This document shows, one piece after another, positions 1 to 38,813 of a stretch of 53,818 bases of DNA. Every line of letters begins with the position of its first letter. Position 1 is the first letter of the stretch. Under the pieces are notes generated by a model, which saw only the letters and a list, made by a program, of their open reading frames with translations, did no database searches and had not been told where the DNA came from. Origin of the DNA: Clostridiales bacterium. Lineage in GTDB: Bacteria > Bacillota > Clostridia > Christensenellales > UBA1242. The DNA lies in the NCBI GenBank assembly GCA_918241715.1, contig CAKJYB010000022.1, positions 1 to 53,818 on the forward strand. The letters run 5' to 3'. The position numbers and the translations under genes were made by a program.

Positions 1-235
1 ACTCTGGTTCATGTCCAAAAATCTGTGCAATCTTTATTTTTTCTTCGTCAGTTGTAAGTGTCAAAAATCCGGTTTTCTTTGGGCTATGAGCCATTGCTCT
101 GGCCGAAAGCATCTCTGTTATGGTTGCGTCTGCACCAAAAGAAGAACATAGTGCCCTAAAGCCTACGTCTGTTACTCCTGCCATTGGTGCAAGAATAAGT
201 GGATTTTCTGAAAAATCTAAGTCTTTTATTTTCAT
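1..235 (-). CDS. dus: tRNA-dihydrouridine synthase, N-terminal fragment (gene runs off the left window edge)
   Basis: Reverse-strand translation from the ATG at 233-235 reads MKIKDLDFSENPLILAPMAGVTDVGFRALCSSFGADATITEMLSARAM... This is the conserved Dus N-terminus with the APMAGVTD motif. It is absent from the ORF track because it is truncated by the window edge. Confidence 0.85.
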   Translation of the reverse strand, partial: MKIKDLDFSENPLILAPMAGVTDVGFRALCSSFGADATITEMLSARAMAHSPKKTGFLTLTTDEEKIKIAQIFGHEPE

Positions 236-241
236 ATTGTG

Positions 242-270
242 ATTCTAGCATATTTTCTTCTTTTTGGCAA
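242..270 (-). promoter_or_regulatory. sigA-type promoter of dus: -35 TTGCCA, 17-nt spacer, extended -10 TGCTAGAAT; ATG starts 7 nt after the -10 (leaderless geometry)
   Basis: Reverse complement of 233-270 is TTGCCA-aaaagaagaaaatatgc-TAGAAT-cacaat-ATG. There is no purine-rich Shine-Dalgarno between the -10 box and the ATG. Confidence 0.55.
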
Positions 271-271
271 A

Positions 272-292
272 GAAAAAGCCGACAATGTCGGC
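272..292 (-). terminator. Rho-independent terminator after the HU gene
   Basis: GCCGAC (278-283) / GTCGGC (287-292) form a hairpin with a 3-nt loop. The A-run at 273-277 gives a T-run on the minus strand, 4 nt after the HU stop codon. Confidence 0.6.
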
Positions 293-295
293 AGT

Positions 296-568
296 TTAAC
301 TTATTGCATACTTAAAATTGTCATAACTTTTAAAGTTTACAAGTTTCTTTGGTTTGCAAATATAATAACGCTTTGTTTGTGGGTTTAAAAATTTCCTTGA
401 TTTTCTCTCTTGCAAAGAGAATTTTCCAAAGCTTCTTATGTTTACATTTCCACCCTTTGAGCACACTTCCAAAATGGCAAGTTTTAGCTCATTTAAAAAA
501 TTGTCGCAACTTTTCTTTGGCATGTTTGTTCTGCTTGAAAGCAGTCTTACAAATTCTGTTTTATTCAT
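296..568 (-). CDS. hup: HU/IHF-family nucleoid-associated DNA-binding protein (divergent)
   Basis: The 90-aa protein starts MNKTEFVRLLS... and contains SFGKFSLQERKSRKFLNPQTKRYYICKPKKLVNFK, which matches the HU beta-arm pattern (GFG.F....R.gRNPqT...i) with the intercalating Pro retained. SD GGGGGTG lies 4 nt upstream of the ATG. Confidence 0.85.
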   Translation of the reverse strand: MNKTEFVRLLSSRTNMPKKSCDNFLNELKLAILEVCSKGGNVNIRSFGKFSLQERKSRKFLNPQTKRYYICKPKKLVNFKSYDNFKYAIS

Positions 569-607
569 ATAGCACCCCCAACAAAATTTTTGTCTATATC
601 AAAATTT

Positions 608-2164: not shown

Positions 2165-2188
2165 GTTGGACTCCCTTTATGCCAAAAT

Positions 2189-2935: not shown

Positions 2936-4360
2936 TTATCCACCAATGCTTAACCCCTCTTCATTGTCCATTTCTCTTTCAATTTCTTTATCAGAATCTT
3001 TGTTTATTTCCTTTTCTTTTTCTTCGCTCTCCTCGTCTACAAATCTGTCACTTTCTTCCCCTAAAACTTTTTCTTTTTCTTCGCTCTCCTCATTTATGAT
3101 TTGATCATTTTCGTCTTCGAGGTCAACAATTTTTACTTCCATCTCTTCATCATCTTCATCAGAATCTAATATTATAGGTTTCGCATGTGATTGATTTTCT
3201 TCCGTTTCTGGTTTTCTGTTCATTACAGGTATTTTTGTTCCCTTATGCAAAGGGTTTACATCAACTGGCTCTGATTCTCTCCTAAAGCTATCTATCTTGG
3301 CATTTTCTCTTGGTGGAGCAAGTAAAACCCCTCCACCACCTTTTTTCTTGTCGTCTTTCTTTGGTTTGTCCTTGTCACCTTTACCTTTGCCACCCTTGCC
3401 GGCATCTTTCTTTTTGGCTGGTTTCTTTTTGGCTTTGGTTTCTTCTTTTTTCTTGGCATCCGGCTTCTTTGGCTCAAGCGTGTCTCTTGGCTCAACTCTT
3501 CTTATCACGTCAATTCCACGTGCTCTGTTTAAAGATTCGATATAACTTCTTATCACTTCTGGACTGCTTGCAAGGATTGATTCCAAAAGTCCGGGATATT
3601 TGAGCATAAGCCCATCTAAAATGAGTTTAAGTCTTGTATAATCTTGTGCAATTCCTGGAAATTTTTCAAAAAGTTTTTCGTAAATTGATCTATACCCTGC
3701 CTTGACTTCAAAGCCGTTTTCTCCAAAAGCGTCAAGCATGTCAAGATATTTTAAAAGATAAATCTGAGCCCAGATATCAAAGAGCTCTTTATACATGTTT
3801 TCTTCTCTTTCAAAGTCTGCAAAAAGTTTGAAGAACAAATTGTCATTTCCAATCTCAACAGGCTCTTTCAAAACGTTCCATTCCAAAAGTGCGTTTTGTT
3901 CAAACATTGGAGAATACATTTCAACAAGTTTTCCGATCTCTTGTTTATGAACAATTGATTCTTCTGCACGTCTTTCGGTCTCCACAATTCTGATTGTTGC
4001 CGTGCAATAAGTCTCCACAATGTCAAGATCAATTTCAAAATTCAAAACATGATTTCCAACTTTTGTGCTTGCATAAACTATGTTGTTTTCTTTCAAATCC
4101 AAGTGCTTTGGAAGAGACAAAAGCGCTTCCAAAATCTTTGTGTCCTTTATGGAGTATTTTCCGTCAGAAGAAAATTCTCCCAAAAGTCCATCACGGAGTT
4201 TTACTTGGTAGAAATAAATCTCATAAAATTTGTCTCTAAGTTTCTTTACGTCAACGTCTTCTTTTTTCTCTTCTGCAGGCTTGTCTGGAGTGTTGCCTTC
4301 TGCAGTTGCGTAAAGAATATCAAAAATATCTTTCATGCCCTTATTATACAACGCAGACAT
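2936..4360 (-). CDS. Hypothetical protein with a ~300-aa globular N-domain, a Lys/Gly-rich basic linker and a strongly acidic C-terminal tail (alternative start at 4336)
   Basis: 474-aa ORF. The basic tract is KKPDAKKKEETKAKKKPAKKKDAGKGGKGKGDKDKPKKDDKKKGGGG. The tail is rich in D/E with a duplicated EESEEKEK. Neither Met1 (4360) nor Met9 (4336) has an SD, but Met9 sits 6 nt after a consensus -10 (see the promoter feature at 4343-4371). Confidence 0.7.
   Translation of the reverse strand: MSALYNKGMKDIFDILYATAEGNTPDKPAEEKKEDVDVKKLRDKFYEIYFYQVKLRDGLLGEFSSDGKYSIKDTKILEALLSLPKHLDLKENNIVYASTKVGNHVLNFEIDLDIVETYCTATIRIVETERRAEESIVHKQEIGKLVEMYSPMFEQNALLEWNVLKEPVEIGNDNLFFKLFADFEREENMYKELFDIWAQIYLLKYLDMLDAFGENGFEVKAGYRSIYEKLFEKFPGIAQDYTRLKLILDGLMLKYPGLLESILASSPEVIRSYIESLNRARGIDVIRRVEPRDTLEPKKPDAKKKEETKAKKKPAKKKDAGKGGKGKGDKDKPKKDDKKKGGGGVLLAPPRENAKIDSFRRESEPVDVNPLHKGTKIPVMNRKPETEENQSHAKPIILDSDEDDEEMEVKIVDLEDENDQIINEESEEKEKVLGEESDRFVDEESEEKEKEINKDSDKEIEREMDNEEGLSIGG
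3012..3091 (-). repeat. Exact 23-nt direct repeat (in-frame duplication, 57-nt period) inside the acidic tail
   Basis: ttttctttttcttcgctctcctc occurs at 3012-3034 and again at 3069-3091. It encodes EESEEKEK twice, 19 codons apart. Confidence 0.9.
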
Positions 4361-4371
4361 CTTTTTTGCAA
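4343..4371 (-). promoter_or_regulatory. sigA-type promoter (-35 TTGCAA, 17 nt, -10 TATAAT) placing Met9 of the Lys/Glu-rich ORF 7 nt after the -10
   Basis: Reverse complement of 4334-4371 is TTGCAA-aaaagatgtctgcgttg-TATAAT-aagggc-ATG. Confidence 0.5.
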
Positions 4372-5220: not shown

Positions 5221-5252
5221 AAAAACAGCCCAGCAAAACTGCTGGGTTTTTT
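5219..5252. terminator. Bidirectional rho-independent terminator (rplI on the plus strand; rsmA / small ORF on the minus strand)
   Basis: CCCAGC (5229-5234) / GCTGGG (5241-5246) form the stem. An A7 run (5219-5225) and a T6 run (5247-5252) flank it. Confidence 0.75.
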
Positions 5253-5400
5253 AATTCTTTCTTTTTCCCAAAAGGGAGTTGAGAGAACAAGAAATTTGGT
5301 TGACAAACCTTATCAAATCACAAAGTTCTTCCTTGTCAAGTCCACAGGCAAGTTGCATGGCAATTGATGTTGCAAACAAAATTTCTTCTTCGTCCGTCAT
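5251..5400 (-). CDS. Possible 49-aa small protein (resembles small clostridial DUF6774-like helical proteins)
   Basis: This is the Met56 sub-ORF of track ORF 5251-5565: MTDEEEILFATSIAMQLACGLDKEELCDLIRFVNQISCSLNSLLGKRKN. The upstream part of the track ORF overlaps rsmA out of frame. There is no SD, but a promoter-like TTGTCA-N18-TATATA ends 5 nt before the ATG. Confidence 0.4.
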   Translation of the reverse strand: MTDEEEILFATSIAMQLACGLDKEELCDLIRFVNQISCSLNSLLGKRKN

Positions 5401-5405
5401 GTGAT

Positions 5406-5435
5406 TATATATTAAATTATGCCAAAAATTGACAA
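5406..5435 (-). promoter_or_regulatory. Candidate promoter for the 49-aa ORF (-35 TTGTCA, 18 nt, -10 TATATA)
   Basis: Reverse complement of 5398-5435 is TTGTCA-N18-TATATA-atcac-ATG. The alternative -10 TATAAT would need a 20-nt spacer. Confidence 0.3.
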
Positions 5436-5440: not shown

Positions 5441-6223
5441 CTATTTCGTGTTGCATTTTTTGTACAATTCAACAAACTCTTCAAGCGACAACGCTTCTGC
5501 CCTTTTTGCAAGAGTTTTTTCGTCAAGTTTGTTTTTGATCTCTTCTTTTTGATAAATCTTTCCAAGATTGTTTAGAAGAGTTTTTCTTTTCATTGCAAAG
5601 CAATTTTGAACAAACTTTAAAAATTCTTCGTCATCGACACCATCAAATTTCTTTCTGTCAATGTCTATGTGCAAGATTGCAGAGTCAACATTTGGTTGTG
5701 GAAAAAACATCTGTCTTTTTACAATTCTTGTAATCTTGCTTTCTCCATAAAATTTTGCCAAGACCGACAAACTTCCATAATCTTTTTCTCCGGTCTGTGC
5801 ACAAATTCTCTCTGCAACTTCTTTTTGGACCATAATGGTCAAACTTTCAAGTTTTTTTGATTTAAACAATTTCATGATTATCGGTGTGGTTATGTAATAA
5901 GGCAAATTTGCCACAACCTTAAATTTTGACTTAAACATCTTTTCAACGTCTGCCATGTCAAAATCCATAAAATCACCAAACACAAATTTTGTGTTTTTCA
6001 AGCCAAGACTTTCCAACTTGTCCTGCAAATCTTTGTCAATCTCAAATGACACAACCTTTTTTGCCTTTTCGTCAAGCACACTTGTCAAACTTCCTGCACC
6101 TGCGCCAATTTCCAAAACTTCCGTGTCTTTTGTTATCCCTGCATCATCTGCAATGGCATTTAAAAGATTTTTATCACTCAAAAAATTTTGACCATATTTC
6201 TTTTTAAAAACAAATTCACTCAT
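5441..6223 (-). CDS. rsmA: 16S rRNA (adenine1518/1519-N6)-dimethyltransferase
   Basis: KKKYGQNFLSDKNLLNAIADDAGITKDTEVLEIGAGAGSLT and ANLPYYITTPI are KsgA/RsmA signatures. The start overlaps the tatD stop by 4 nt (ATGA). Confidence 0.95.
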   Translation of the reverse strand: MSEFVFKKKYGQNFLSDKNLLNAIADDAGITKDTEVLEIGAGAGSLTSVLDEKAKKVVSFEIDKDLQDKLESLGLKNTKFVFGDFMDFDMADVEKMFKSKFKVVANLPYYITTPIIMKLFKSKKLESLTIMVQKEVAERICAQTGEKDYGSLSVLAKFYGESKITRIVKRQMFFPQPNVDSAILHIDIDRKKFDGVDDEEFLKFVQNCFAMKRKTLLNNLGKIYQKEEIKNKLDEKTLAKRAEALSLEEFVELYKKCNTK

Positions 6224-6981
6224 ATTCCAAACAACCTTTTTGCGTTTTGTGTTGTGATGGAAGCAATCTCTTCCATCGAAACGCCTTTTATTTTTGCAAT
6301 CACGTCAGCCGTGTAAACAACGTTTTTAGGTTCGTTTCTCTGTCCCCTAAATGGCTCTGGAGTCATATAAGGACAATCCGTTTCAAGCAAAATTCTGTCA
6401 AGTGGAATTTGCCTTACAAGTTCCACAACGTTTTTTGCGTTTTTAAACGTAACAAGTCCACCAAACGAAAACGAAAATCCAAGTTTCATTAAAATTTCTG
6501 CACTTTCAAAACTTCCACTAAAGCAGTGCATCAAACTTTGTTTTTTGACTTTGTGTTGTATCAAAATTTCAATCGTGTCGCCAATTGAATCTCTTGTGTG
6601 AACAACAATCGGTTTTGAAAGTCTGTTTGCCATTTCAATTTGTTCGACAAAAAGTTTTTTCTGTTCTTCTTTGTTGTCCTTTGTGTAGTGATAGTCAAGA
6701 CCAATTTCTCCAATTGCCACAACTTTCTTTTCTCTTGCAAGTTTTTCAATTTCTTCAAGGCCTTTTGGGTCTGCTTCCTCAACGTTTTCTGGGTGAAATC
6801 CAACATTTGCATACACAATATCATATTGTTTTGAAAATTCCACTGCCCTTTGGGACGAAGAAAGATTGCAAGAAGCACAAATGCTTGCAACAACACCTGC
6901 CTGTTTTGCTCTTTCAACAACCTGAAAAACATCATCAAATTTTTCGTCTGTTATATGTCCGTGTGCGTCAACAAATTCCAT
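6220..6981 (-). CDS. tatD: TatD-family metal-dependent hydrolase/DNase
   Basis: The MEFVDAHGHI N-terminus (DxHxH), GFHPENV, GEIGLDYHY, VHTRDS and ETDCPYMTP are canonical TatD/YabD motifs. Confidence 0.93.
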   Translation of the reverse strand: MEFVDAHGHITDEKFDDVFQVVERAKQAGVVASICASCNLSSSQRAVEFSKQYDIVYANVGFHPENVEEADPKGLEEIEKLAREKKVVAIGEIGLDYHYTKDNKEEQKKLFVEQIEMANRLSKPIVVHTRDSIGDTIEILIQHKVKKQSLMHCFSGSFESAEILMKLGFSFSFGGLVTFKNAKNVVELVRQIPLDRILLETDCPYMTPEPFRGQRNEPKNVVYTADVIAKIKGVSMEEIASITTQNAKRLFGI

Positions 6982-6987
6982 AAAAAA

Positions 6988-7017
6988 ATTATAGCAAATT
7001 TTTCAAAATCAAGTCAA
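6988..7017 (-). promoter_or_regulatory. sigA-type promoter of tatD-rsmA: -35 TTGACT, 18 nt, extended -10 TGCTATAAT; ATG 7 nt after the -10 (leaderless geometry)
   Basis: Reverse complement of 6979-7017 is TTGACT-N18(ending TGC)-TATAAT-tttttt-ATG. The six intervening bases are all T, so an SD is impossible. Confidence 0.6.
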
Positions 7018-7067
7018 CATCTGCTTGGTTATTTCTTTTTTGGGACAAGTTTGCATAAATAACTATT

Positions 7068-7643
7068 GTGAACATATTTTGGCTTTTGATGATGCTCTCC
7101 AGCATTCTGGTCCTTTTGATAACAAACCCTGCCGGCATACTGACAGAGATGATTTCTGCGTCAACCAAAGCATTAAATTTGTGCTTGCAACTTTGTGCAA
7201 TTTATGCCGTCTGGCTTGGAATTTTGCAACTTGTTGATGCAAGTGGATTGAGTGAAAAACTTGCAAAACTTTTGCGTCCTTTCATTAAATGGCTTTTCAG
7301 GGTTGATGACGTTGAAACGCAAAAAGCAATTGCCCTAAACCTTTCAGCAAACATTCTTGGACTTGGAAATGCAGCAACTCCAATGGGAATAAATGCCATG
7401 CAAAAACTTGACGACGGAACAGGAACAGCAAACTTTGCAATGATAATGCTTATTGTTGTAAATGCAACTTCCATACAACTTTTGCCCACAACAATAATTG
7501 GACTTCGCACAAGTGCAGGTTCGACAAATCCGGCAGATATAATTTTTCCAACTCTTATCACAACTTTTATCACAACGGCACTTGGAATTGTTCTTGTAAA
7601 GGCAATAGACAAAATAAAGGAAAGAAAAAATGAACAATCTTAA
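7068..7643 (+). CDS. spmA: Spore maturation protein A-like nucleoside-recognition-domain membrane protein
   Basis: 191-aa polytopic protein. MNIFWLLMMLSSILVLLI... and GLGNAATPMGINAM are typical of SpmA. It has a GTG start with no obvious SD. Confidence 0.8.
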   Translation: MNIFWLLMMLSSILVLLITNPAGILTEMISASTKALNLCLQLCAIYAVWLGILQLVDASGLSEKLAKLLRPFIKWLFRVDDVETQKAIALNLSANILGLGNAATPMGINAMQKLDDGTGTANFAMIMLIVVNATSIQLLPTTIIGLRTSAGSTNPADIIFPTLITTFITTALGIVLVKAIDKIKERKNEQS

Positions 7644-8145: not shown

Positions 8146-8176
8146 AAAAAATCACTTCTTCCTAAAGTGATTTTTT
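8144..8176. terminator. Bidirectional terminator between spmB and the convergent methyltransferase gene
   Basis: ATCACTT (8151-8157) / AAGTGAT (8165-8171) form a 7-bp stem, flanked by an A7 run and a T6 run. The right arm overlaps the last codons of the minus-strand gene. Confidence 0.55.
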
Positions 8177-10658: not shown

Positions 10659-10664
10659 ATACTG

Positions 10665-10693
10665 ATTTTATCATAATTGCGTCCAAAAAGCAA
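10665..10693 (-). promoter_or_regulatory. sigA-type promoter of holB-ricT-methyltransferase: -35 TTGCTT, 17 nt, extended -10 TGATAAAAT; ATG 7 nt after the -10 (leaderless geometry)
   Basis: Reverse complement of 10656-10693 is TTGCTT-N17(ending TGA)-TAAAAT-cagtat-ATG. No SD is present. Confidence 0.55.
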
Positions 10694-29100: not shown

Positions 29101-32100
29101 CACCTGAAAGGGTTAAGTCTTTTTCATATTCGTCTCTTTCAATTGTGATATTGCAAGAATAGTCGTCCGACAAATTTAAAAATGCCAATTTGTTGAGTTT
29201 ATCTATTCTTGAAACAGGAAGAGAAATCTCATCTTCCGAAAAGTTGCTTCCAACAAGTTCTTTTACTTTTGCTTCTCCAAAATCACCATAATCATCTTCG
29301 TTAAAATAAACACCCTGTATATGATAGCCTTCCTTGAGAGCAAAATTGAGTCTCAAAAAGTTTTCCATCCTGTCGCTATACTTTGTGTTGAAACGAATAA
29401 CAATCTTATTTCCAGAAAGTTGCGCTGTAAATTTATTCCCTGAGTTGTCAGTTGTGCTTTCATATTTTTGCAAATAAATTGAATCCATGTTTAAAACTTC
29501 AGAGAAATTAAACTTGTTCTTTGCTGCATAATCTCTGCTTTCGACGTCCGAACTCTTGTTTAAATTGATTGTGAACGTATAGTTTTCTTCAGTTGTTCCC
29601 GTCCATTTTACATAAATATTTTTATGCGTTTGTCCATCGGCAAGATTCATTCTGTCGTCAATTCTAAGTGCTTTGGAAAAATTTCCATTGCTGAAAGATG
29701 TGTAATAGCTTGCAGTATAATTTTCTCTTGCCTGCGACGTTATCTCTGGCCATACTTCGGTTAAGATGTCGTCATAGCCGAATGTTCTTTCTTCATAGAC
29801 TTCTGTTGTTGCAAAACCAGCATACACTTCATATTCATTTTTTACAATTCTTACATCAACATTTCTCTCTTCATATTGTGCAGTAAACACCAACTCATTG
29901 AGAGTTATTTCTTCTTTTCTCAAAGGCAACTCAAATGCAATTGTGTCAACAGAAACTTCTGTGTTTTCTGCCGTTTTATAGCTTTTAAGATAATATCCTT
30001 CGTTGACAATATAGTTTGCAACTGAGATTTTTGGATTTATTTCTTGTGGGGATCTTGTTGGCAAAACCAAGTTTTCAAAAGATGTGGCATTTTGAACTTT
30101 GTATTGGCTTCCATCTTTTTTCAAAAGAGTTTGATATTGTCCGTAAATATACTTGCTGGTTTGACTAGTGTTATCATAATAATAAATTCTTCCACCATTT
30201 ACATTTGTTTCTACAACATATCCTTCTGGTGTGTAAACATTAAAACATACATCTTCAACTTTTCCTTCAATGTTGGCCTTTCCAAAATAAACATGTAAGC
30301 TGTTGTTTTCAACATGTCCAACAGGAGTTTCATAGTCTGTTGTGCAGTTTACAAGATAAGTTGATGCAACAACATTTCCAATGATAGCCCCTTTCCTAAC
30401 CGAACTTCCGTCAGAAAGATATTTGACGTTTTTAACATTCAAGTTTTTAATGACAGCACTGGAAGTTGACCCAAAAACACCAAAGTTTTCAACACCAAAG
30501 TCGCTTTGGTGAGAACTTACAAGGCCATAAATCGTGTATCCGTTTCCGTCAAAGACTCCGGCAAATCCAACAATTGGTTGCCATGCTCTTTCGGAAAGAT
30601 CAATGTCGTTTTGAAGAGAAAAATATTTCCCTAATGTAGAAGACATCTTTCTTACCAATGTCAAGTCTCCAACAGAATAAATTCTGTAAGGATCATACTT
30701 TTTTCCACTTCCGAGCAAGTTGGTTGCAGTGGATTGTGCGTTTACATCGCTGTCGGCCGTTTCGTCCAAGAATTTGAGATATGGCATAGAGCTGTTTACT
30801 GATGCTGAAATATCCCAAGTGTTTTCAAAATCCCATATTGTGTTTGGGTTGTTCCCCCAAAGTTTTTTGTTTGCATAAAATCCTTTTGTCTTTGCCCAAT
30901 CAACAATCTCTTTTACTCCATAATTGCTTGAAGTGTAAAGAGTTTGGTCATAGACCCTGTTTAGCAACACGTCATTTTCAACTGAATAATAAAGGAAGCC
31001 GCCACTTACAACATCACCAATTGTTTGTCCTATGCTCCTTGTTGCACCCTTTACCACTCCGGTATTAAACGAATTTTTTATTGCAAAGTTGTCCATTCCA
31101 CCAATAAACCCGACAAGCCCACATCTGTAATTATCTCCGTTTACTTCTCCGGCGTTGTAGGAATTGTTAAGTTCATTTTTCTTGTTTACTCCCGTCTTTG
31201 TCTGTGTCTCTGATCTTCCAATAATTCCACCAACACTTGAAATAGACCCCTGCACTGAAGAAATCTTTGCAGTGTTGTAAACATTTGTCAACTTGACACC
31301 TGTTGGGTTTTGTGCCAACCACCCAACAATACCACCAATGTATCCTTTTGTATGATTTGTAATCTCTCCATCAAAAGAAGCGTTGTCAATTGAAACGCCA
31401 ATAAATTCTCCAACGATACCACCGACACATGAAAGTTCTGCCGTGCCGTTTCCATCTATGTAAACGCTGGATTTAAGGTTTGATATTTTTGTGTTTACGT
31501 TTCTCTTTCCGTTGGAATCTGGATTAGGAGAAGAAACGGTTCCAATCACACCACCAACGTTTTGATAATTCCCAGATGCAGAAAGATTCATCTTTCCTGA
31601 TACAGAACAATATCTAACGGCTTCACAACCAGCCCCCGTAGCCGTCGATGCAACTCTACCAACAAGTCCACCAACATTGTTTGCCTTTCCTGTTATGTTT
31701 ATGTTTCTAAGGTTTAAGTTTAAAATCGTTCCACCTGCTCCAGAAATAGAACCAAACAAACCGGCATTGTTAAAATTGCCTGAAACATTTAGGTTGTAAA
31801 TATAGTGCCCGTTTCCGTTGAACGTTCCTTGAAAATATCTGTTGTCAACATTTGCAATAGGAGTCCATGCATGACCACCAAGGTCCACGTCTGTTTCCAA
31901 ATGAATTGTCTTTCCACTATAAGATTCTTGTCCGTTTACAGCGTTTACACTTTGAGCAAACTTAACAAATCCTTTTGCCGTGTATATGTAATAGTCGTTT
32001 CCAGATTTGTAAAAGTCTGTATCTGAAACATCTCCAACAGAACTGCCGTCCCACAATTTGTCGCCAGAAAGAGATGTCGTCTCTTCTCCTGCAGCAGAAA

Positions 32101-32203
32101 CAACACTATAATCTGTTTTCGACTTTTCAACACCCAAAAGACCAAGCAAACTGCAAAGTCCAAAGGTAAGGGCAAACAACGCCAACAATCCTTTTCTTTT
32201 CAT
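14171..32203 (-). CDS. Giant (~6,010 aa) mosaic cell-surface protein: signal peptide, GLUG-type beta-helix modules, Flg_new-like and MBG-like repeat arrays, C-terminal TM tail anchor
   Basis: An uninterrupted 18-kb frame in AT-rich DNA. Start set at Met10 of the track ORF (MKRKGLLALFALTFGLCSLLG...) because AAGGAG lies 6 nt upstream. Motifs are detailed in the sub-features below. No LPXTG, SLH or HExxH was seen by eye. Confidence 0.9.
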   Translation of the reverse strand: MKRKGLLALFALTFGLCSLLGLLGVEKSKTDYSVVSAAGEETTSLSGDKLWDGSSVGDVSDTDFYKSGNDYYIYTAKGFVKFAQSVNAVNGQESYSGKTIHLETDVDLGGHAWTPIANVDNRYFQGTFNGNGHYIYNLNVSGNFNNAGLFGSISGAGGTILNLNLRNINITGKANNVGGLVGRVASTATGAGCEAVRYCSVSGKMNLSASGNYQNVGGVIGTVSSPNPDSNGKRNVNTKISNLKSSVYIDGNGTAELSCVGGIVGEFIGVSIDNASFDGEITNHTKGYIGGIVGWLAQNPTGVKLTNVYNTAKISSVQGSISSVGGIIGRSETQTKTGVNKKNELNNSYNAGEVNGDNYRCGLVGFIGGMDNFAIKNSFNTGVVKGATRSIGQTIGDVVSGGFLYYSVENDVLLNRVYDQTLYTSSNYGVKEIVDWAKTKGFYANKKLWGNNPNTIWDFENTWDISASVNSSMPYLKFLDETADSDVNAQSTATNLLGSGKKYDPYRIYSVGDLTLVRKMSSTLGKYFSLQNDIDLSERAWQPIVGFAGVFDGNGYTIYGLVSSHQSDFGVENFGVFGSTSSAVIKNLNVKNVKYLSDGSSVRKGAIIGNVVASTYLVNCTTDYETPVGHVENNSLHVYFGKANIEGKVEDVCFNVYTPEGYVVETNVNGGRIYYYDNTSQTSKYIYGQYQTLLKKDGSQYKVQNATSFENLVLPTRSPQEINPKISVANYIVNEGYYLKSYKTAENTEVSVDTIAFELPLRKEEITLNELVFTAQYEERNVDVRIVKNEYEVYAGFATTEVYEERTFGYDDILTEVWPEITSQARENYTASYYTSFSNGNFSKALRIDDRMNLADGQTHKNIYVKWTGTTEENYTFTINLNKSSDVESRDYAAKNKFNFSEVLNMDSIYLQKYESTTDNSGNKFTAQLSGNKIVIRFNTKYSDRMENFLRLNFALKEGYHIQGVYFNEDDYGDFGEAKVKELVGSNFSEDEISLPVSRIDKLNKLAFLNLSDDYSCNITIERDEYEKDLTLSGDFNFAIGPKYDVVGKKVSIYGEEYGITFSGEDERYVGFNFDTLRLISNDNAFENLSITNFSENADNIVSFGERNYLFSDDGDGLRAVYLLNSSPQIGANGRVLSTSIQDTIVKIVKTIEDGNAKYSFQYFYNQDFVFIAMAKDIRDTISIQGGLRKRIDKDHDEDVPANRYSATIIPVTSAGQTNNSKGYAVFTGAVEYSNKDYSISSKATIVDLSFEFVLEEKDGEGNITGYKKILENAPTIVAEHTMYDVEQAGTFKFVVNPSEYYRFKQDADRPNSVYLNNQVFFINPAKEIPEGGDESSQYEINGLDDPGTFDTQNNINEISFNYDTSFPAARYIVRIVCEEVKYDINFNTTIDGILNTQTMKYTDMEIISQKEVDGVMVWDEENAKTFDYYTRPTGVSTGTAYTDNRASNKFAFNSKIRVKVVAPNHAYFLRWFEVVNGNRTNAIQIVEYDDTSTTLEFVYSDMFIACECADFVMNVRSVFTRKVINFELYQNQIWDKSNGQIATYQELGIESGVSGLSPNQYTYTIGLENTAYKGVSITALTGENAAGYEYAGYRIYCVNDEGEVVPVRYDANHDYWESEDVLASYNFNFLVDRMTQRAYEYQGRVSQSYYLVPVVVRKEITLVFHSGTGLLNEYGDGRNGHVYNTENQETTNNTGAFASLTKYTSRFGEEVDITDISSFGSSDAGFNLREHFSRRTGYRELAQTEFMAYTGNNGQEVVLFDNNILLGNDIFESVHDEGDDKNVVHIYFRWSANNYNINFNANDGTFAPGSSNVVNVFFDQTLPNIPQVDRVGYDLLGWKLYVDEESPLGPYVIEKDGSEFVFCEGDYFDADGKYIYDGEITLVAVWEARHYKVRVYQNSANVYYKNGVRKTEGEGYEDYDIVYDSTFANIYADYATNRIPTRKDFRFLGIYANSTEIAGRNQIAEDTIFDQYIETCDLTQTDEPNLNLYVAWEFDGDYSISFESQIEELKYTAESQLVYVGSFLTTEGSSFVYNGYQNVAFNSASGLLEITISDELHATLTMYLNDEEETEFSVRDAGVYTKTFKIVVEDNAEYYNCGTIIEEIHTFSVGVLKASIDTEASIDENLVKLASVKNIMKGLVSDAEYQTIQAFTNIENFADYIRDHDNTANSASDENIYKFVMLKFYNQLVDADYLTYKNWKYSDYQTYYDAHQEDAERTISNLRFVSSYIYTDNGKRRDISDYTSAFKFKSVDGDVSDSKIRSELSISSVKINGNASGIEANSTAELYIYFSASEETLNNYSLLEDENGNTYFEIASIYILPQILQVANSESSGYSYYDETLSCADIEWFVGRNEAEAVEGQTYYQITDDLFMKAKLYTSNGGSGRVDTDYTAFGVENVLYYSNVDIYRKVGNEYQFVSDRFKVLADKNDIYKILSTKDFYRVNISAQYLTTSQGQRTSTEISTDVAQNLLRIIGVAYYTGSDPSAQTDPTKWKQERSDDFLEEKEYRVSAGGMVLFKIVHNNDNNVSIFAHKVVKRISVVLTTKYITENIRFHKWSDTILRDVDGPFEENGGFDILTNGIEMNEDKETEVNYYATFTDLVEVVYNLNFPEDYPTRSVERSVLKLGVSTIDDLFIPNEGGFEFVTFNLKDTTGVAIDYTTLFTGPSDTFKGLTEKHARLELDVVWKIGDILTEQKVETINLQVGTLYQYSMEEIVSITNKSNDLFTYTYVWKKGTQIVSEGENLSLENGGITTDSGEYSLTISAKVKERFKNVVPNPTDAEDAVVEFTINLMPHKITQIELVGEDTAIYDSYNHSQDWTIDVRYLRYNNETGEYYQLPDMEEVFFTTDDVLSAETTKGGNVVDEMVNVGQYSIHLSYNTDYYVVESGTELDFDFVFEITPFVLDIDGEISPKGKYFNGDNEDIKQTFSTGFEELEIEFSRQAGEDIGEYRLYLKDVASQSKGNYTIVCGEDVIFENSTPDTTIVVGTFTISCAGEIKLSYETDASTRENLEVVYNPDGYTIALTDSFKLQIFNGETKIKDIQLKLYDVANQKEITNSTILNILKTKVSDITPYFNNSVDIAHAIDCGVYAYTFNLGQQISNYYTTIRFETGYQFTIKKQELDVETFNLDKVYDGKTIAYIDLNGDVIPSIENYEDVYILATYESPYANPSVNVLLNVVGTGEENIANYELSAPSTTATISKLSATGTIATTKASYVYGEVRENNFESLLQSIVLYANGQNVTNLLNEERYTISYALPSLAQANTAGCLYVGTYTIDVSATFEDFDVSITEPQIQVAPLNVVKNLNKGAFKVVAPATRTDNYVDVPMTISETGDSITLSYYTYGITNPSQLIADHFYNLQPETTSFANGSVLVSVPTNEGLEILANNNIVEARIVNTGILTQTYNGSEYEFSVNLSTQTFEISNGANTYTSALTFWEESTQITISDFSEIEVYSPARDGQGQEIRQTEFTTAGTNKLAIYTRSNSYPIIIFKQDYNFEIEKKAINVSNLSVSKIYDGNMNYTITTFAEKVGEDDVSIVARFENANVGTNKNISLSLVGEDAGNYQLSSASMTGDITKQTAVVTIDNLQYTYGDLSNTSTLQFSVYCGDNKVGTSEYNIEFTIVGATYSTQWNYLFAGQYSLQMTGSSDNYNLTFDNSVKLVVSKYALDVVFETSGVVSVEYGETNPNTFNYTYRTPIFEDVVLQVTRQNGLNVGFYRALSSTTTDPNFVISSTTDNSDGMYRITKSSVVVFLLLSNEEEITSSTAESVAFAYDGNIYNQLQVRKVSDEYKLVITDGANEKMFALNTYIYDGSKYVKTAKTLQNLTSVLSFAEEEVKNVGIYRYLCESAQAENYNVSLMKTGQVYNNIVINPKELRFKEETITRTFDNKDAIYIYEDADELVDGVVDGEEVGLKIEFFKNAERARYVGQNYVVQAELVGENEVVSNYQILTLTADETQVNGTIEKAEMKIYINSVRIVYGEDYTLSFDYTYDEEIDLTGYDMTRIDIRLHVVGEQTSTANKAKVGEYRIEVSTDIKDFSPTFNVDGVEKLVYSNEAKVVVSKKDISYTATSGTLGEAFTKKYDGNTNCSIQEGGVDKFALDGVLTGDAVYLESAEYASYDIGNTIEVELTLGGADADNYRITNWSYGVIEPIVVSLRFDYNANGSTAVHSNTEIAGIKTITKLAFPFVSISYITSNSYENDTMFIENFPTSLSGYTGYTFKAWMLRFTNVEENSQKYEFLSALAEELLLKTAYENEIFDFYVGNNAASVSLLNKLMRDDTDNIAGMYYLENENPIITFTADWSEVEYSINVRIADENGRTAAYGTAESGGEVIDRAGTIVSGYNREVSILATPLEHCTYVGFYDADEGYKYDTAGAMFVNVTRDGATATLTISKMTKSYNIVVRFKAQSVRVEIPTTDPENTSTNIDGFVEDEGKIIWTTNYFELGETSLEDVGLERVGYVLNSITIAGTTYLPEQFEDVVLQDLVVGENDQVLTLTPNFESVGVVVTLNYGYNDLTENIAVAFESAYNTSAGWVETPEREGYNFLGWYNYNGQRVIGSDVMATTNTHTLTARWEIASFTLTLEIENGTMEFEEQEITSYETELQFNETLTFIVKANNGYHIPSASELPEEISSYTRGEQIYFVVIMPGRDYSYTIRARADENIVVYSGENVGVVQAYDITEGEEEIIISANRFAVETGRTIRMVVHGATGYLISGYSVSVDTLDIDEDLTGGVLTLEISGILGNVAFTFETQEDKHYVAVGFENPENIESFVYQERNYYNFEDISIEVPTGEDLTFVVKYKHGYRVGTYQTQSGYDVDIQETTILEEKYYEITISNILIDGEITFEEEIESYTITLEVISINDSKQQVFEEQNRVKIADNNTMTITKEFGEEIELAFVSSNVIYNFAGWSKNGTIVFSNDRNTTYTIEDDETIYAIFSAIKINVTLKTLNYYTLYSEYMDPEMLETHYDEIENVGEEYFEDEEKTKSITKTSIYYGSSKNIYYDTPVGYRFYGHGYKNGEDFVYLSKDDGNSRGYINISTLGLDEEQTEITIYMVVRALSSRVFVKTEIDVEGEREENRNVGSIKLVDGEGADVNEYGYVEGTRVHYSLDDYTDGELVNNKEFTIIACTGEEIFIRAKLERAGFVFYGIAFENENMNVSRIADADDGDAIYKIVGVVGGENCEISVLFRPTLNKISIDFAVEEDSVDGGAFNYETAEPRKVFSSGIGYSTIEMSAYTDSSFKIYAYIDMGYLIDPDNIQFVDESGLVVASSVAFEEMDIYTTGYMGVITFVVADYFEEATIRVVITPRRYVVHLVEDGSVLATIRNVEYSKLINVNKTNEGNISVYDDRLVYAGGKLNLKLNKQGYTYEGFFSYENGAGVRYINSDGLPSLLWQDTGYYYDIGSSTYKLTTNARINEQTGDMEISIFLYWSYLKTRIIFTLVPSVPTLITAQDMVEGVDYTNSWFYKDSPYYIEVAFNTSINITAPEMDGYKFYKFVISQKNKNGEVLKPVSTSQTSVPWVTNELDAIVEVNIQVVYYVKIDVVVYGGEGYYDIVQETKDTQAEALLRAGYVDSTIPFMLRAVPKEGYTFVRWNNITSGRSSIAPEWDRLYVTAKTTFVMNLQGDYVTIKFTSQDSLGNEVPYDYTHGQIMSAIATSINNTSRSFRIGSKIRNVFTILLNEIEVKVGDVVTFAVEIDGGFAALWNRDDVRHTRYADGKYYFELTISPEMSENHYIRLLPNFQNEIMAIYVNRDFVEEQKGLNAVDADNVNLAGFVLYNSRRTNMFRMDRGQDMTIGFEVNPRYSIDTIVIGIGEREIDLMPFYDKGKISLTTEYIEENQVVGTLRLQVMFRRLLWEEKVVEVNLEGEGTKRNPYEISSVEELVFVMQKVNSGAKNLYGEYYSEASYVLKKDLKIGAEFWTPIGTIEHAFNGRFNFNKHQVTAIYNPYLYVDTSYDGLFGVIGERAVIEGGKAEVWYWYLIGAAVLALTGTAITIIYIAKRNKKRMEKMSVK
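14213..14287 (-). other. C-terminal transmembrane helix of the giant protein, followed by a 13-aa basic tail (14174-14212)
   Basis: VWYWYLIGAAVLALTGTAITIIYIA followed by KRNKKRMEKMSVK-stop. This is the only hydrophobic segment apart from the N-terminal signal. Confidence 0.8.
14288..14615 (-). other. Membrane-proximal GLUG-like cap module
   Basis: EGEGTKRNPYEISSVEELVFVMQKV...DLKIGAEFWTPIGTIEHAFNGRFNFNKHQVTAIYN...YDGLFGVIGERAVIEGG has the same G-x-G-x3-PY-x-I / W-x-PIG / F-x-G-x-F-x-GNGH-like / GLFG pattern as the N-terminal modules. Confidence 0.6.
14620..19740 (-). repeat. Array of Listeria-Bacteroides (Flg_new / InlB B-repeat)-like modules, mostly degenerate
   Basis: A GY-x-[FILV]-x-G-[WFY] signature recurs about every 80-110 aa. 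Examples: REGYNFLGWYNY...TLTARWE, YNFAGWSKNG...IYAIFSA, NNGYHIPS, ATGYLISGYS, KHGYRVGTYQ, PVGYRFYGHGY, RAGFVFYGIAF, KQGYTYEGFFSY...FLYWS, MDGYKFYKFV, KEGYTFVRWNN. Boundaries are approximate. Confidence 0.5.
18485..18705 (-). other. Clean Flg_new (Listeria-Bacteroides repeat) module
   Basis: VVVTLNYGYNDLTENIAVAFESAYNTSAGWVETPEREGYNFLGWYNYNGQRVIGSDVMATTNTHTLTARWE. Confidence 0.7.
19750..23520 (-). repeat. Array of MBG-type (YDG ... NY-x-L/I) beta modules
   Basis: Examples: LDKVYDGKTIAYIDLNG...GEENIANYELSAPSTTATISK (about 22597-22862); VSKIYDGNMNYTIT...NANVGTNKNISLSLVGEDAGNYQLSSASMTGDITK (about 21470-21715); FTKKYDGNTNCSI...GGADADNYRITNWSYGVIEP (about 19750-20035). Degenerate copies include KYFNGDNE...GNYTIV and RTFDNKDA...VSNYQIL. 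Confidence 0.6.
26545..26830 (-). other. Clean Flg_new (Listeria-Bacteroides repeat) module
   Basis: NYNINFNANDGTFAPGSSNVVNVFFDQTLPNIPQVDRVGYDLLGWKLYVDE...GEITLVAVWEA. Confidence 0.7.
30290..31950 (-). other. N-terminal region with two GLUG-motif beta-helix modules
   Basis: Module 1: KTIHLETDVDLGGHAWTPIANVDNRYFQGTFNGNGHYIYNLNV..NAGLFGSISGAGG...NVGGLVGRVAS...NVGGVIGTV...CVGGIVGEF...YIGGIVGWL...SVGGIIGRS...RCGLVGFIGG. Module 2: GSGKKYDPYRIYSVGDLTLV...RAWQPIVGFAGVFDGNGYTIYGL...NFGVFGSTSSAVIKNLNVKNV...KGAIIGNV. Confidence 0.7.
32132..32203 (-). other. N-terminal Sec-type signal peptide / anchor of the giant protein
   Basis: MKRKGLLALFALTFGLCSLLGLLG has a basic n-region plus a hydrophobic core. 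FGLC is not a canonical lipobox. Confidence 0.65.
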
Positions 32204-32234
32204 GGAAGACTCCTTGACACAATATGTCATTATT

Positions 32235-35190: not shown

Positions 35191-35198
35191 TTTTTCTC

Positions 35199-36293: not shown

Positions 36294-36302
36294 GTTTCCC
36301 CC

Positions 36303-37142
36303 TTACAAATCCCCGTCAATGAAAGTAGAATAATAGCTACTATCTGCGCCGTTTGTTTTTATGTCTTTAACTTTGTTCTTTTTTTCTTCTGTTGTGTATT
36401 GGTATGCAATAATTTCTTTCTCTGCATACACAATCCCATCTCCATCTTCTACAAAATATTTTTCTGTAAACTTCAAAAAGTCGTCTCCAACATCTTCTGT
36501 TGTAAGTTTTGTTTTTACATCTTTTGAAAGGTTTTTAATTCCCAAGAAGATTATGTCAGAATAATCATTGTTGAGCAGATTTGATTTTACGCTGTTTTGA
36601 TAAATTTTTGCACAAATATTGAAAGCGTCGATTGTCTTGGAAAGGAAATTTTTCATGTCTCCCTTTACATCTTCCCATGCTCTCTCTTCCCAGTAAGCAT
36701 CTCCAGAAGTCTTTTTGTTGTTTTCTTTTATCCTTTTGATAAGGCCGTCAACATATTTTTGTGCACTCTTAAGAGCATCTTGGACATCTTTTCTGTTGTC
36801 TTTGTAGTATTTTGTGTATTCCATAAAGTTGATTTCTCTGTTGAAGAAATCAGCAACATACAAATATCCTTCATAAGCGCTTTTAATATTATTTACTTCG
36901 TTTCTTTTTTCATTGTCAGTAAGCGTAGATGAAAGTTTTTCAAGGTAAGACTTTATTTGGTTGTGGTCAGAAGATGCAGAATTTGATGCTTTCAAATATC
37001 CCGTCGTAACATAATCGTTTACACTTTCTGCAAGAGCTGACGTATCTTTCTTTTTGAAAAGCGTAAAGAAAACCACGCCAAGTATTGCGGCCAAAACAAC
37101 AATTATTATTGTTATAAACAAAACTTTTCTGCCACCTTTCAT
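36303..37142 (-). CDS. Hypothetical N-terminally membrane-anchored helical protein (279 aa)
   Basis: MKGGRKVLFITIIIVVLAAILGVVFFTLFKKK is a single N-terminal TM helix. AAGGAG SD. It starts 23 nt after dnaB. Its composition resembles the neighbouring lipoprotein. Confidence 0.75.
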   Translation of the reverse strand: MKGGRKVLFITIIIVVLAAILGVVFFTLFKKKDTSALAESVNDYVTTGYLKASNSASSDHNQIKSYLEKLSSTLTDNEKRNEVNNIKSAYEGYLYVADFFNREINFMEYTKYYKDNRKDVQDALKSAQKYVDGLIKRIKENNKKTSGDAYWEERAWEDVKGDMKNFLSKTIDAFNICAKIYQNSVKSNLLNNDYSDIIFLGIKNLSKDVKTKLTTEDVGDDFLKFTEKYFVEDGDGIVYAEKEIIAYQYTTEEKKNKVKDIKTNGADSSYYSTFIDGDL

Positions 37143-37165
37143 GTTTTTCTCCTTTTTCGGGTTTT

Positions 37166-38515
37166 TTATTGAATCTGCACTTTTTCGTCAAAGTTAAGGA
37201 AAGTTGTGTATTCTCCAACCCACTTCAATTTTATTTCTCCCGTCTTTCCACTTCTATGTTTTGCAATAATCAAATAAACCGTTCCTGGTTCTTCTGTTAT
37301 CTGAACATCGTTGTATCTTTCTGGATTGTAAAGGAACAAAACAATATCGGCGTCTTGTTCGATAGAACCAGATTCACGAAGATCTGAAAGCACAGGCTTA
37401 TGATCTTCTCTAAGGTCAACAGCACGATTGAGCTGTGAAAGCAAAATGATTGGAACGTTAAGTTCTTTTGCGGCAACTTTCAATGTTCTTGTGATAGCGC
37501 TGACTTCGTTTGTTCTGGACTCTTGAGTTTTTGTCCCCATTGTCATAAGTTGAAGATAGTCAATAACAATAAGGTCAAGCCCTTCCGTCATTTTAAGTTT
37601 TCTACATTTTGAAATAATGTCAAAAGGTGTAACCATTGAAGAGTCGTTTACAAAGAAGAAACTTTGTGCCAACTTTTTGTTTGCCGTCCAAATTCTCTTC
37701 CATTCGTCATTGTCCATGCTTCCGTTTAAGATGTGTCCCATGTCAACTTTTGCAACAGATGCAAGAGATCTTATCATAAGTTGTTCTGAAGACATTTCAA
37801 GGTCAAAAACGGCAACTTTCTTTCCTTCTTCAAGGGCTGCATGCTCTGCAATATTCATGGCAAAAGATGTCTTTCCAACACCAGGACGAGCAGCAACCAT
37901 AATCAAATCACTCTTTTGAAGTCCGTTTGTGATTGCGTCAAATTCTTTGTATCCTGTTGGAATTCCACGAAGTTTTCCTTTATTTTCTGCGATTTCAGAA
38001 ATTTGATTTAAAACTCTTGTCAAAACACCTTCTTTCTTTCCAACAAGTTCCAAATCAGAAGCTGTTTCTTTTTGAGACAAATCAAAAATTTTCTTTTCTG
38101 CAACCTGCATTGCATGTTCGCCATCTTCAGCTTCAAAGGCAGTCTTTATTATCTCTTGAGATTCTGTGATAAGTTTTCTTCTTGTTGCCATGTTTTTCAC
38201 AATTTCAAGATAGTGAGAAAAGTTTGCAGCAGATGGAACGGCATTTGTAAGATATGTTACATAGTCAATTCCACCAACCTTTTCAAGTCTTTTGTCAACT
38301 TCAAGTTGGTTTGTAAGCGTAACAAAATCAACAGGAATGTTTTTCATTGAGATTTTTAACATGCTGTCGTAAATGTCTTTGTGAGATTCTGCATAAAAAT
38401 CAGAAACGTCAATCTTTGAAAAAATATCTAGTTGTGCATCATTGTCAATCAAAATACAACCGAGCAACGCTTGCTCAGCTTCAAGGCTGTTTGGTAAAAT
38501 TTTATAATCTGCCAT
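37166..38515 (-). CDS. dnaB: Replicative DNA helicase
   Basis: LPNSLEAEQALLGCILIDNDA, Walker A ARPGVGKTSFAMN, IVIDYLQLM and IILLSQLNR. 449 aa, AAGGAG SD. Confidence 0.97.
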   Translation of the reverse strand: MADYKILPNSLEAEQALLGCILIDNDAQLDIFSKIDVSDFYAESHKDIYDSMLKISMKNIPVDFVTLTNQLEVDKRLEKVGGIDYVTYLTNAVPSAANFSHYLEIVKNMATRRKLITESQEIIKTAFEAEDGEHAMQVAEKKIFDLSQKETASDLELVGKKEGVLTRVLNQISEIAENKGKLRGIPTGYKEFDAITNGLQKSDLIMVAARPGVGKTSFAMNIAEHAALEEGKKVAVFDLEMSSEQLMIRSLASVAKVDMGHILNGSMDNDEWKRIWTANKKLAQSFFFVNDSSMVTPFDIISKCRKLKMTEGLDLIVIDYLQLMTMGTKTQESRTNEVSAITRTLKVAAKELNVPIILLSQLNRAVDLREDHKPVLSDLRESGSIEQDADIVLFLYNPERYNDVQITEEPGTVYLIIAKHRSGKTGEIKLKWVGEYTTFLNFDEKVQIQ

Positions 38516-38526
38516 GGTCTTCTCCT

Positions 38527-38778
38527 TTAATCAGCAAATGGGTCTTTCTTTTTCTTCTTTCTTTCTTCTTTTCTTGCATCAAATTTTTCGTAAATAATCG
38601 TGTAAATTGCAAACAAGAAAAACATTATAATAACCAAAATCATAATGTTTACCCATTGTTTAACTCCACATGAAGCCAACACAACTTCGATGACAACAAT
38701 AGGCACAAGAACAATAAGGAAAAAGAGCCCCAATCTTGTTATTCTTTTCTTTAAAAGTTGCTTTTCCGAGTTTTTCAT
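38527..38778 (-). CDS. Small two-TM membrane protein (83 aa) heading the dnaB gene string
   Basis: MKNSEKQLLKKRITRLGLFFLIVLVPIVVIEVVLA...WVNIMILVIIMFFLFAIYTIIY...KKKKKDPFAD. Start placed at Met19 of the track ORF, because a consensus promoter ends 6 nt upstream of it. The stop is 11 nt before dnaB. Confidence 0.6.
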   Translation of the reverse strand: MKNSEKQLLKKRITRLGLFFLIVLVPIVVIEVVLASCGVKQWVNIMILVIIMFFLFAIYTIIYEKFDARKEERKKKKKDPFAD

Positions 38779-38784
38779 ATTTAA

Positions 38785-38813
38785 AGTATAACAACAAACC
38801 CGTTGTTTGTCAA
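38785..38813 (-). promoter_or_regulatory. Consensus sigA-type promoter (-35 TTGACA, 17 nt, -10 TATACT); ATG 7 nt after the -10 (leaderless geometry)
   Basis: Reverse complement of 38776-38813 is TTGACA-aacaacgggtttgttgt-TATACT-ttaaat-ATG. Confidence 0.6.

Follow-up and report, generated by a model that had tools for sequence, protein, structure and literature searches.

Promoters ending six nucleotides before the ATG suggest leaderless initiation in operon-first genes of an uncultured low-GC Clostridia clade

Known leaderless systems and the present locus

Leaderless translation initiation is an established route in Actinobacteria, Deinococcus-Thermus and some Firmicutes (PMC3898074, PMC4633059, PMC4007540, PMC3160421, PMC9031893). 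This study concerns its probable use in a 53,818-nt stretch of DNA from a Clostridiales bacterium (contig CAKJYB010000022.1, assembly GCA_918241715.1; the whole stretch is called the window hereafter). The leaderless signal in bacteria is a TANNNT box beginning about 12 nt before the start codon, accompanied in low-GC Firmicutes by a TG peak (PMC3160421), and leaderless genes of M. tuberculosis have the -10 box 6–8 nt from the start (PMC6028130). Genomes of GeneMarkS-2 group C are recognized by a localised -10 motif 6–8 nt from the start in 25–50% of operons, and 36 of 1064 Firmicutes genomes (3.4%) belong to this group (PMC6028130); its members using code 11, the standard code, are reported to be high-GC almost without exception (bioRxiv 10.1101/2022.07.25.500264). 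Where a signal is detectable in Firmicutes, it affects a mean of 4.2% of genes (range 2.4–16.6%), concentrated in Lactobacillales and Mycoplasma (PMC3160421). Among mapped Clostridia, leaderless initiation was reported for 15 genes in C. difficile (PMC7438776), for about 4% in C. phytofermentans (PMC5171806) and for 2–3% in solventogenic clostridia (PMC9045289). A literature search found no publication tying leaderless initiation to the group represented by the window.

Analysis of the window revealed five genes with a consensus promoter whose -10 box ends 6 nt before the ATG and with no Shine-Dalgarno (SD) sequence in between. The geometry equals that of known leaderless genes, which counts as support for reading them in the same way, and on the combined evidence given below the five sites very likely produce true leaderless mRNAs. 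The mechanism is already known; the novelty is the lineage, a new and somewhat unexpected host. The nearest relatives of the window are metagenome-assembled genomes of uncultured Clostridia, with Candidatus Caccovivens as the closest relative that has a name.

Comparison with the described systems revealed shared and distinct features. A TANNNT -10 box 6–8 nt from the start of an operon-first gene, no SD at these genes, SD sites at other genes and, as far as the window goes, a sizeable share of operons are common to the window, to Actinobacteria (M. tuberculosis and M. smegmatis; Cortes 2013, PMC3898074; Shell 2015, PMC4633059) and to group C. The use of an SD-type ribosome-binding site (RBS) by the remaining genes, a trait of group C, is also found here: in 20 of 29 conserved families, at least 75% of members have an SD-like core of 4 nt or more, and strong AGGAG/GGAGG sites occur. 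Unlike those systems, which are high-GC, have a weak or absent -35 box and accept GTG, the window has a GC content of 36%, a full -35 box, a TGn-extended -10 box and a signal seen with ATG only. The low-GC Firmicutes of Zheng et al. 2011 (PMC3160421) belong to the same phylum, are AT-rich and have a TGnTAtAAT-type box about 12 nt upstream of the start at a few percent to about 17–18% of genes; however, they are Bacilli or Mollicutes, where the signal is concentrated, and none was described for Clostridia. The -35 box is apparently dispensable in Lactococcus (PMC3160421) but shows strong conservation at the present sites (54 of 62). Deinococcus-Thermus likewise has a -10 motif that abuts the open reading frame (ORF) and acts as promoter, with expression needing a specific distance between motif and start (de Groot 2014, PMC4007540; PMC12340547). 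It differs in phylum, in its high GC content, in a leaderless share of 30–60% of mRNAs and in having been verified experimentally, whereas the present arrangement is known from sequence alone. Mapped Clostridia belong to the same class and share the consensus of the housekeeping sigma factor (sigma-A) and strong SD sites; in them, however, leaderless initiation is rare and the C. phytofermentans genes have retained an RBS along with a start site further upstream, whereas about 28% of operon heads in the window seem to be without both.

The five sites, their start codons and their conservation

Each of the five sites lies on the minus strand and matches exactly the sequence given in a preliminary description of the window. 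The gene dus, for tRNA dihydrouridine synthase, is represented by its 5' part (positions 1–235) and runs off the window (Pfam PF01207, domain from residue 14); its site (233–270) consists of the -35 box TTGCCA (270–265), a 17-nt spacer, TGc (250–248), the -10 box TAGAAT (247–242), cacaat (241–236) and ATG (235–233). A Lys/Glu-rich protein of 466 amino acids, counted from the leaderless ATG, is encoded at 2936–4336 and belongs to a family present in 10 genomes of the clade; its site (4334–4371) has TTGCAA (4371–4366), 17 nt, TATAAT (4348–4343), aagggc and ATG (4336–4334). The tatD-rsmA operon (5441–6981; Pfam TatD_DNase 3.7e-87, RrnaAD 7.5e-62), in which the tatD stop overlaps the rsmA ATG (ATGA, 6220–6223), is preceded by a site at 6979–7017 with TTGACT (7017–7012), 18 nt, TGc, TATAAT (6993–6988), tttttt and ATG (6981–6979). 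For the operon of holB, ricT (PSP1) and a methyltransferase gene (8162–10658), the site at 10656–10693 has TTGCTT (10693–10688), 17 nt, TGa, TAAAAT (10670–10665), cagtat and ATG (10658–10656); the later genes have GGAGG or AAGGAA sites and overlapping stop/start codons, the GGAGG site of the gene after holB sitting within the holB 3' end. The fifth operon (37166–38778) encodes a small membrane protein (83 amino acids from the leaderless ATG) followed by dnaB with its own AAGGAG site, and is headed by a site at 38776–38813 with TTGACA (38813–38808), 17 nt, TGt, TATACT (38790–38785), ttaaat and ATG (38778–38776). The TGn extension of the -10 box is thus present in four of the five sites. The gene names used previously agree with Pfam (Dus, TatD, RsmA, DNA polymerase III delta' domain for holB, PSP1 for ricT, methyltransferase and DnaB). 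A Pfam search with the Lys/Glu-rich protein, the small membrane protein and two ORFs of 49 and 288 amino acids that are treated below as weaker candidates gave no match above curated thresholds.

The 6-nt stretches that separate the -10 box from the ATG (cacaat, aagggc, tttttt, cagtat and ttaaat) contain no SD at any of the five sites, as had been claimed, and the contrast drawn with rplI, uppP, gltX, dnaB, trpS and two giant ORFs was borne out by the AGGAG-type sites of all these genes. A plus-strand gene at 2265–2902 (212 amino acids, no Pfam match) provides an internal control for the presence of an SD in leadered genes of the window: it has TTTACA-N17-TGcTATAAT followed by a 31-nt gap to the ATG (region 2205–2267), which contains AGGAG and implies a 5' untranslated region (UTR) of about 24 nt. 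An Rfam scan of the whole window gave no matches, so the absence of an SD is not explained by a riboswitch or leader RNA.

A total of 10 matches to TTGNNN-N16-18-TANNNT-N6-ATG were found on both strands of the window, compared with a mean of 2.9 (standard deviation 1.9, maximum 8) in 100 dinucleotide-preserving shuffles. The five claimed matches open ORFs of 78–466 codons and all are first genes of transcription units; the other five open at most 14 codons. A general promoter scan found 36 sites against 31.6 expected, and lone consensus matches therefore carry little meaning.

The codon beside the promoter is the true translation start, as judged from in-frame stops, Pfam domain starts and orthologue N-termini that align at this ATG. 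Upstream of the ATG, in-frame stops are TAG at -12 for dus and TAA at -12 for holB, both inside the -10 box, and TGA at -24 for tatD; an in-frame search found no upstream alternative start for these three genes. Pfam domains begin at residues 14, 10 and 4 of Dus, HolB and TatD, and the conserved N-termini APMAGVTD from residue 16 of Dus and DAHGH from residue 5 of TatD are present as the preliminary description had them. Its statement that holB has no alternative Met is slightly in error: downstream, an in-frame Met30 exists, along with TTG at codon 16 and GTG at codon 17. On the upstream side there is none, because the in-frame TAA falls within the gene's own -10 box. The starts proposed for the Lys/Glu-rich ORF (Met9) and the small protein (Met19) are internal to the longest ORF. 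Both choices are backed by the relatives, in which the ORF has no ATG before the matching one and lacks the upstream extension. Public gene calls give a Lys/Glu-rich protein of 474 amino acids (ATG 4360; 2936–4360) and a small protein of 101 amino acids (ATG 38832; 38527–38832), while gene callers on the relatives' contigs give 83 amino acids for the latter. The longest-ORF starts at 4360 and 38832 are not conserved among relatives and were rejected. The longer public forms are probably wrong, and the relatives indicate proteins of 466 and 83 amino acids.

Conservation across orthologues is the strongest evidence for the leaderless layout. Relatives were collected by a TatD scan with one genome per species, which gave 80 loci, about 15 of the closest being syntenic across the whole block from dus to uppP; for the small protein, seven contigs were fetched through DnaB homologues by protein search. 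The holB layout is kept in all 12 orthologues, down to 40% protein identity, with ATG in every case and an SD in none; by eye, 11 of the 12 read TGnTAnnnT-N6-ATG, the script having scored L012 on an adjacent hexamer. All six dus orthologues of the close clade keep TGnTAnnAT-N6-ATG, the tatD layout (N6 or N7) is kept in 13 of the 14 closest relatives, and TTGCAA-N17-TATAAT-N6-ATG precedes the Lys/Glu-rich ORF in 8–9 relatives. The 6-nt spacer sequence differs freely among leaderless orthologues. The holB gene is leaderless across a broader range of relatives than tatD, distant orthologues of which have a promoter, a leader and GGAG, or are probably coupled to the upstream metG. As a separate observation on tatD, in many relatives from Acutalibacteraceae and Oscillospiraceae (L016–L080) this gene has neither SD nor promoter and starts inside the upstream gene or a few nucleotides past its end (…CCCGGTACAAAAATCAGATG), a position that indicates translational coupling, probably to metG.

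The small membrane protein gene revealed both arrangements in related genomes. Four of eight genomes (the window, L082, L083 and L087) have the leaderless layout, TTGACA-N17-TGtTATAxT-N6-ATG. The other four (L084, L085, L086 and L088) keep the promoter and the N-terminus but have 20–37 nt between the -10 box and the start; their leaders contain AAAGGA, GGAG, GGGAG or GGGG, and one starts with GTG. Among these eight genomes, no intermediate was found between an ATG with neither leader nor SD and a leader with SD. Across tatD, holB and the small-protein gene, an SD-like core is never present in leaderless orthologues and always present in leadered ones (the four small-protein genes and distant tatD).

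Clade-wide statistics were obtained from a sample of about 0.4 Mb; for the distance histogram an unbiased rule was applied, by which every non-overlapping ORF of 90 codons or more starts at its first ATG. The spike at 6–7 nt that the preliminary description had anticipated in a plot of distances (d) from the -10 box to the start was present in this sample. Among 228 ORFs from the 15 closest genomes, TANNNT occurred 37 times at d=6, against about 7 at other distances, and TGnTANNNT occurred 24 times at d=6 and 3 times at d=7, against 0–2 elsewhere. No spike at d=6 was found in 720 ORFs of similar composition from Oscillospirales-type and other distant Clostridia. When candidate starts were allowed, the geometry was present in 46 of 453 ORFs, whereas decoy distances gave counts of 4 and 1. 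Among the 62 unique sites with the leaderless layout, 51 have N6 and 11 have N7; TTG at -35 lies 16–18 nt from the -10 box in 54 (a 17-nt spacer in 36), and TGn is present in 45. A pyrimidine at -1 was found at 56 of the 62 sites and at 126 of 213 SD-led starts (p = 1.5e-6), as would be predicted for transcripts that initiate on the A of the ATG. Since these sites had been searched with ATG only, the preference for a start codon was judged from a distance histogram of all three codons: the counts at d=6 and d=7 were 51 and 11 for ATG, and at background for GTG (4 and 8) and TTG (10 and 15). The first 40 nt of these ORFs fold weakly, a significant property that fits leaderless initiation but does not discriminate, weak structure being general at starts.

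The position of the genes as heads of transcription units is evident from terminators for dus and holB and from divergent neighbours for tatD and the small gene, and is less clear for the Lys/Glu-rich ORF. Directly before the dus promoter lies the intrinsic terminator of the HU gene (278–292, minus strand; -9.5 kcal/mol, z = -4.0, followed by the U-tract UUUUUCUUU), which makes dus its own transcription unit. The terminator of a P-type ATPase gene (10692–10725, minus strand) consists of U7 behind a hairpin of 14 bp (-13.2 kcal/mol, z = -3.7), and its U-tract extends into the holB -35 box. The tatD site lies in an 86-nt divergent intergenic region common to spmA, and the small gene is divergent from an ankyrin-repeat gene across about 160 nt; no other consensus promoter was found before tatD or the small gene in these two regions. 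The Lys/Glu-rich ORF follows a co-directional gene at about 45 nt, and the hairpin between them (-3.2 kcal/mol) is no different from shuffles. The region upstream of the small-protein promoter also holds an AT-only perfect palindrome (38823–38856; AAAAAAUAUAUAAU...AUUAUAUAUUAUAUGUUUUUU; -8.9 kcal/mol, z = -3.0). The ankyrin-repeat gene itself (38940–39935, plus strand; Ank_4 1.4e-11) occupies a slot that varies among relatives, being filled by an ankyrin gene (L083) or a helix-turn-helix gene (L087), or empty.

RNA polymerase usually initiates 7 nt past the -10 box and favours a purine after a pyrimidine; in conventional numbering the -10 hexamer spans -12 to -7. With a gap of 6 nt after the -10 box, position +1 would fall on the A of the ATG and the transcript would begin at AUG. 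In the mechanism proposed here, sigma-A RNA polymerase would bind a -35 box TTGnnn and, after a spacer of 17 ± 1 nt, a -10 box TAnnnT, usually TGn-extended, that ends 6 nt before the ATG (7 nt in some relatives). The mRNA would have neither 5' UTR nor SD, and a ribosome carrying initiator tRNA would bind the 5'-terminal AUG directly. The downstream cistrons rsmA, ricT, the methyltransferase gene and dnaB are translated conventionally, from SD sites of their own or by way of overlapping stop/start codons. The arrangement is a heritable, selected trait of a clade of uncultured low-GC gut Clostridia related to Candidatus Caccovivens; within this clade it coexists with strong SD-led initiation and, at single genes, interconverts with a promoter, short leader and SD.

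Alternative explanations and frequency in the clade

The idea put forward in the preliminary description, that sigma-A-type promoters start transcription on the A of the ATG and make an SD unnecessary, is supported by every test that was run, namely orthologue geometry, the either/or relation with an SD, restriction to ATG, the pyrimidine at -1, in-frame stops, and upstream terminators or divergent genes. Several points weigh against it. The position of the transcription start and the mode of ribosome loading are deduced from this geometry. The orthologous sites are not independent, and the signal comes from only about five conserved families and three single genes. Among non-syntenic families of at least 150 amino acids in the relatives, a lower share (3 of 48) is leaderless. 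Read-through transcripts may also reach the Lys/Glu-rich ORF, which has no convincing terminator before it. Lastly, putative leaderless start sites in C. phytofermentans usually have another start site upstream (PMC5171806).

The last two points would also fit an explanation in which translation of the five genes takes place chiefly on leadered or polycistronic transcripts beginning upstream, with SD-independent initiation, for example through an AT-rich region free of structure, through S1-dependent loading or through 70S re-initiation, and in which the -10-like box is an AT-rich translational enhancer or a secondary promoter. The weakly structured first 40 nt would suit such internal initiation equally well, and the position of the Lys/Glu-rich ORF, about 45 nt behind a co-directional gene with a weak hairpin between them, also counts in its favour. 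However, the affected C. phytofermentans genes keep their RBS and the genes here do not (PMC5171806), and every leader found in the relatives bears an SD. An enhancer would have no need of TTG at -35 with a spacer of 17 ± 1 nt (54 of 62 sites), of the TG element present at 45 of the 62, of a constant distance of 6–7 nt, of a pyrimidine at -1 or of ATG exclusively. Strong terminators stand directly before dus and holB; upstream of tatD and the small gene there is neither a gene in the same direction nor, within their intergenic regions, another consensus promoter. We regard initiation on upstream transcripts as improbable. Far less credible still is the view that the pattern arises from AT-rich intergenic DNA and from choosing start codons beside common TANNNT-like hexamers. 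Such an effect could be suspected in a window of 36% GC, in which the general promoter scan barely exceeded expectation and in which Met9 and Met19, two of the five starts, differ from those of the longest ORF. Yet the 10 matches exceed the 2.9 ± 1.9 of the shuffles, with the long-ORF cases all at unit heads, and the 46 matches in the clade sample stand against 4 and 1 at the decoys. The unbiased first-ATG rule still gives the spike at d=6, which is absent at nearby distances and in distant relatives; Met9 and Met19 are fixed independently by the relatives, and in-frame stops bar longer forms of dus, tatD and holB.

The promoters could also be truly leaderless and yet a local oddity of a few conserved housekeeping operons instead of a genome-wide property of the lineage. 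The five orthologous families supply 41 of the 46 leaderless matches, the share of 3 in 48 non-syntenic families is low, and the wider leaderless range of holB than of tatD suggests gene-specific histories. Against this, three further unrelated genes in relatives have the same geometry (L008, 4252–5484; L010, 6718–7689; L013, 15996–17081), even 6% of genes exceeds the 2–4% of transcripts in mapped Clostridia (PMC9045289, PMC5171806), and leader gain or loss at one gene within a genus-level group implies that leaderless mRNAs are handled routinely. A restriction to a few operons is thus rather unlikely, although it deserves far more weight than either of the two preceding alternatives.

In the window, five of about 18 operon heads (28%), or five of about 27 genes, are leaderless, a share that may overstate the genome-wide one. 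In the clade sample, five of 29 families with at least three members are leaderless in most members, and 6–18% of genes is roughly a fair range. The leaderless layout is commoner here than in other Clostridia studied. The preliminary description had called this frequency unusual for Firmicutes, which holds in relation to mapped Clostridia (2–4% of transcripts; 15 genes in C. difficile), although leaderless-rich Firmicutes are already known (Lactococcus/Streptococcus, Oenococcus/Leuconostoc and Mycoplasma; PMC3160421). Under a broader proposal, which we offer tentatively as a possibility, a family-level clade of uncultured low-GC gut Clostridia would rely independently on leaderless initiation near the level of Actinobacteria (about a quarter of operons), including replication and RNA-modification genes and possibly sporulation-sigma genes (spmA and the 49-amino-acid ORF), with frequent switching between leaderless and SD-led forms. 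It would be the first such case in the class Clostridia and a rare low-GC, standard-code counterpart of group C.

Weaker candidates, neighbouring genes and implications

Three further genes, spmA and the ORFs of 49 and 288 amino acids, lack an SD and have a -10-like box beside the start. The spmA candidate (7054–7070, plus strand) has CATAAATA (7054–7061), the spacer actatt and GTG (7068–7070). Alignment of the region upstream of spmA in 18 relatives (L001–L018, L030; window 7030–7070) revealed GTCTTTTT, about 13 nt, CATAnAnn (CATA(A/C)A(T/A)(A/T)), 5 nt in 15 of the 18, and ATG, with no SD; the aligned start codon is GTG in the window and ATG in the relatives. This box is unlike a sigma-A -10 box and may resemble the sigma-E/K mother-cell consensus (CATAcAnT for B. 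subtilis sigma-E), and it is possibly a mother-cell sporulation-type promoter abutting the start. A sporulation-sigma promoter is a possible reading for the ORFs of 49 and 288 amino acids as well. Public gene calls give a shortened spmA from a downstream ATG (184 amino acids), and the relatives point to the GTG at 7068 (7068–7643) instead.

The candidate site of the 49-amino-acid ORF (5398–5435, minus strand) has TTGTCA (5435–5430), an AT-rich -10-like box and ATG (5400–5398). The ORF (5251–5400, minus strand; MTDEEEILFATSIAMQLACGLDKEEL...) is conserved with 54–65% identity in at least 10 relatives and has two more distant matches; in 12 relatives it is preceded by AATATAAA(A/T)-N3-5-ATG with no SD and with variable spacing. 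Neither the public gene calls nor the public set of proteins from this contig includes it, and it probably encodes a small protein that has escaped annotation. The candidate for the 288-amino-acid ORF (42747–42761, minus strand) consists of TATAAA (42761–42756), the spacer tagact and ATG (42749–42747). The motif AAAGAGTATAAATA followed by 4 nt before this start is nearly invariant in eight genomes (the window and seven relatives, L082–L088), three relatives start with GTG, and there is no -35 box. The motif (window 42747–42775, minus strand) lies between a giant ORF and the lipoprotein-like 288-amino-acid ORF and does not correspond to a canonical SD or to a canonical promoter.

Nearly all genes of the window are on the leftward strand; spmA and spmB are encoded on the plus strand. 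Other genes are those for HU, polysaccharide biosynthesis, a DUF1540 protein, rplI, the P-type ATPase, uppP, trpS and gltX, and a BipA-type GTPase whose domains were detected in orthologues on related contigs. Two giant ORFs on the minus strand, at 14171–32230 (about 6000 amino acids) and 42779–53692 (3637 amino acids), have strong SD sites and N-termini that resemble signal peptides; faint Flg_new/Flg_new_2 repeat matches were obtained with homologues from relatives, and both are probably surface proteins. In the 6019-codon giant ORF the first ATG (32230) is not the true start, the SD-led ATG being at 32203.

As the mechanism is long established, the gain from this study is incremental, and its main practical value lies in start-codon annotation and in the series of switches between initiation modes. 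Gene callers without a leaderless model misplace starts in this lineage. The occurrence in close relatives of one promoter either abutting the ATG or standing before a short SD-bearing leader offers a natural series for the interconversion of initiation modes. If true, low-GC Clostridia with many leaderless housekeeping operons would join Actinobacteria, Deinococcus-Thermus, some lactic acid bacteria and Mollicutes among the leaderless-rich bacteria, and such a lineage would be relevant to expression design in gut anaerobes.

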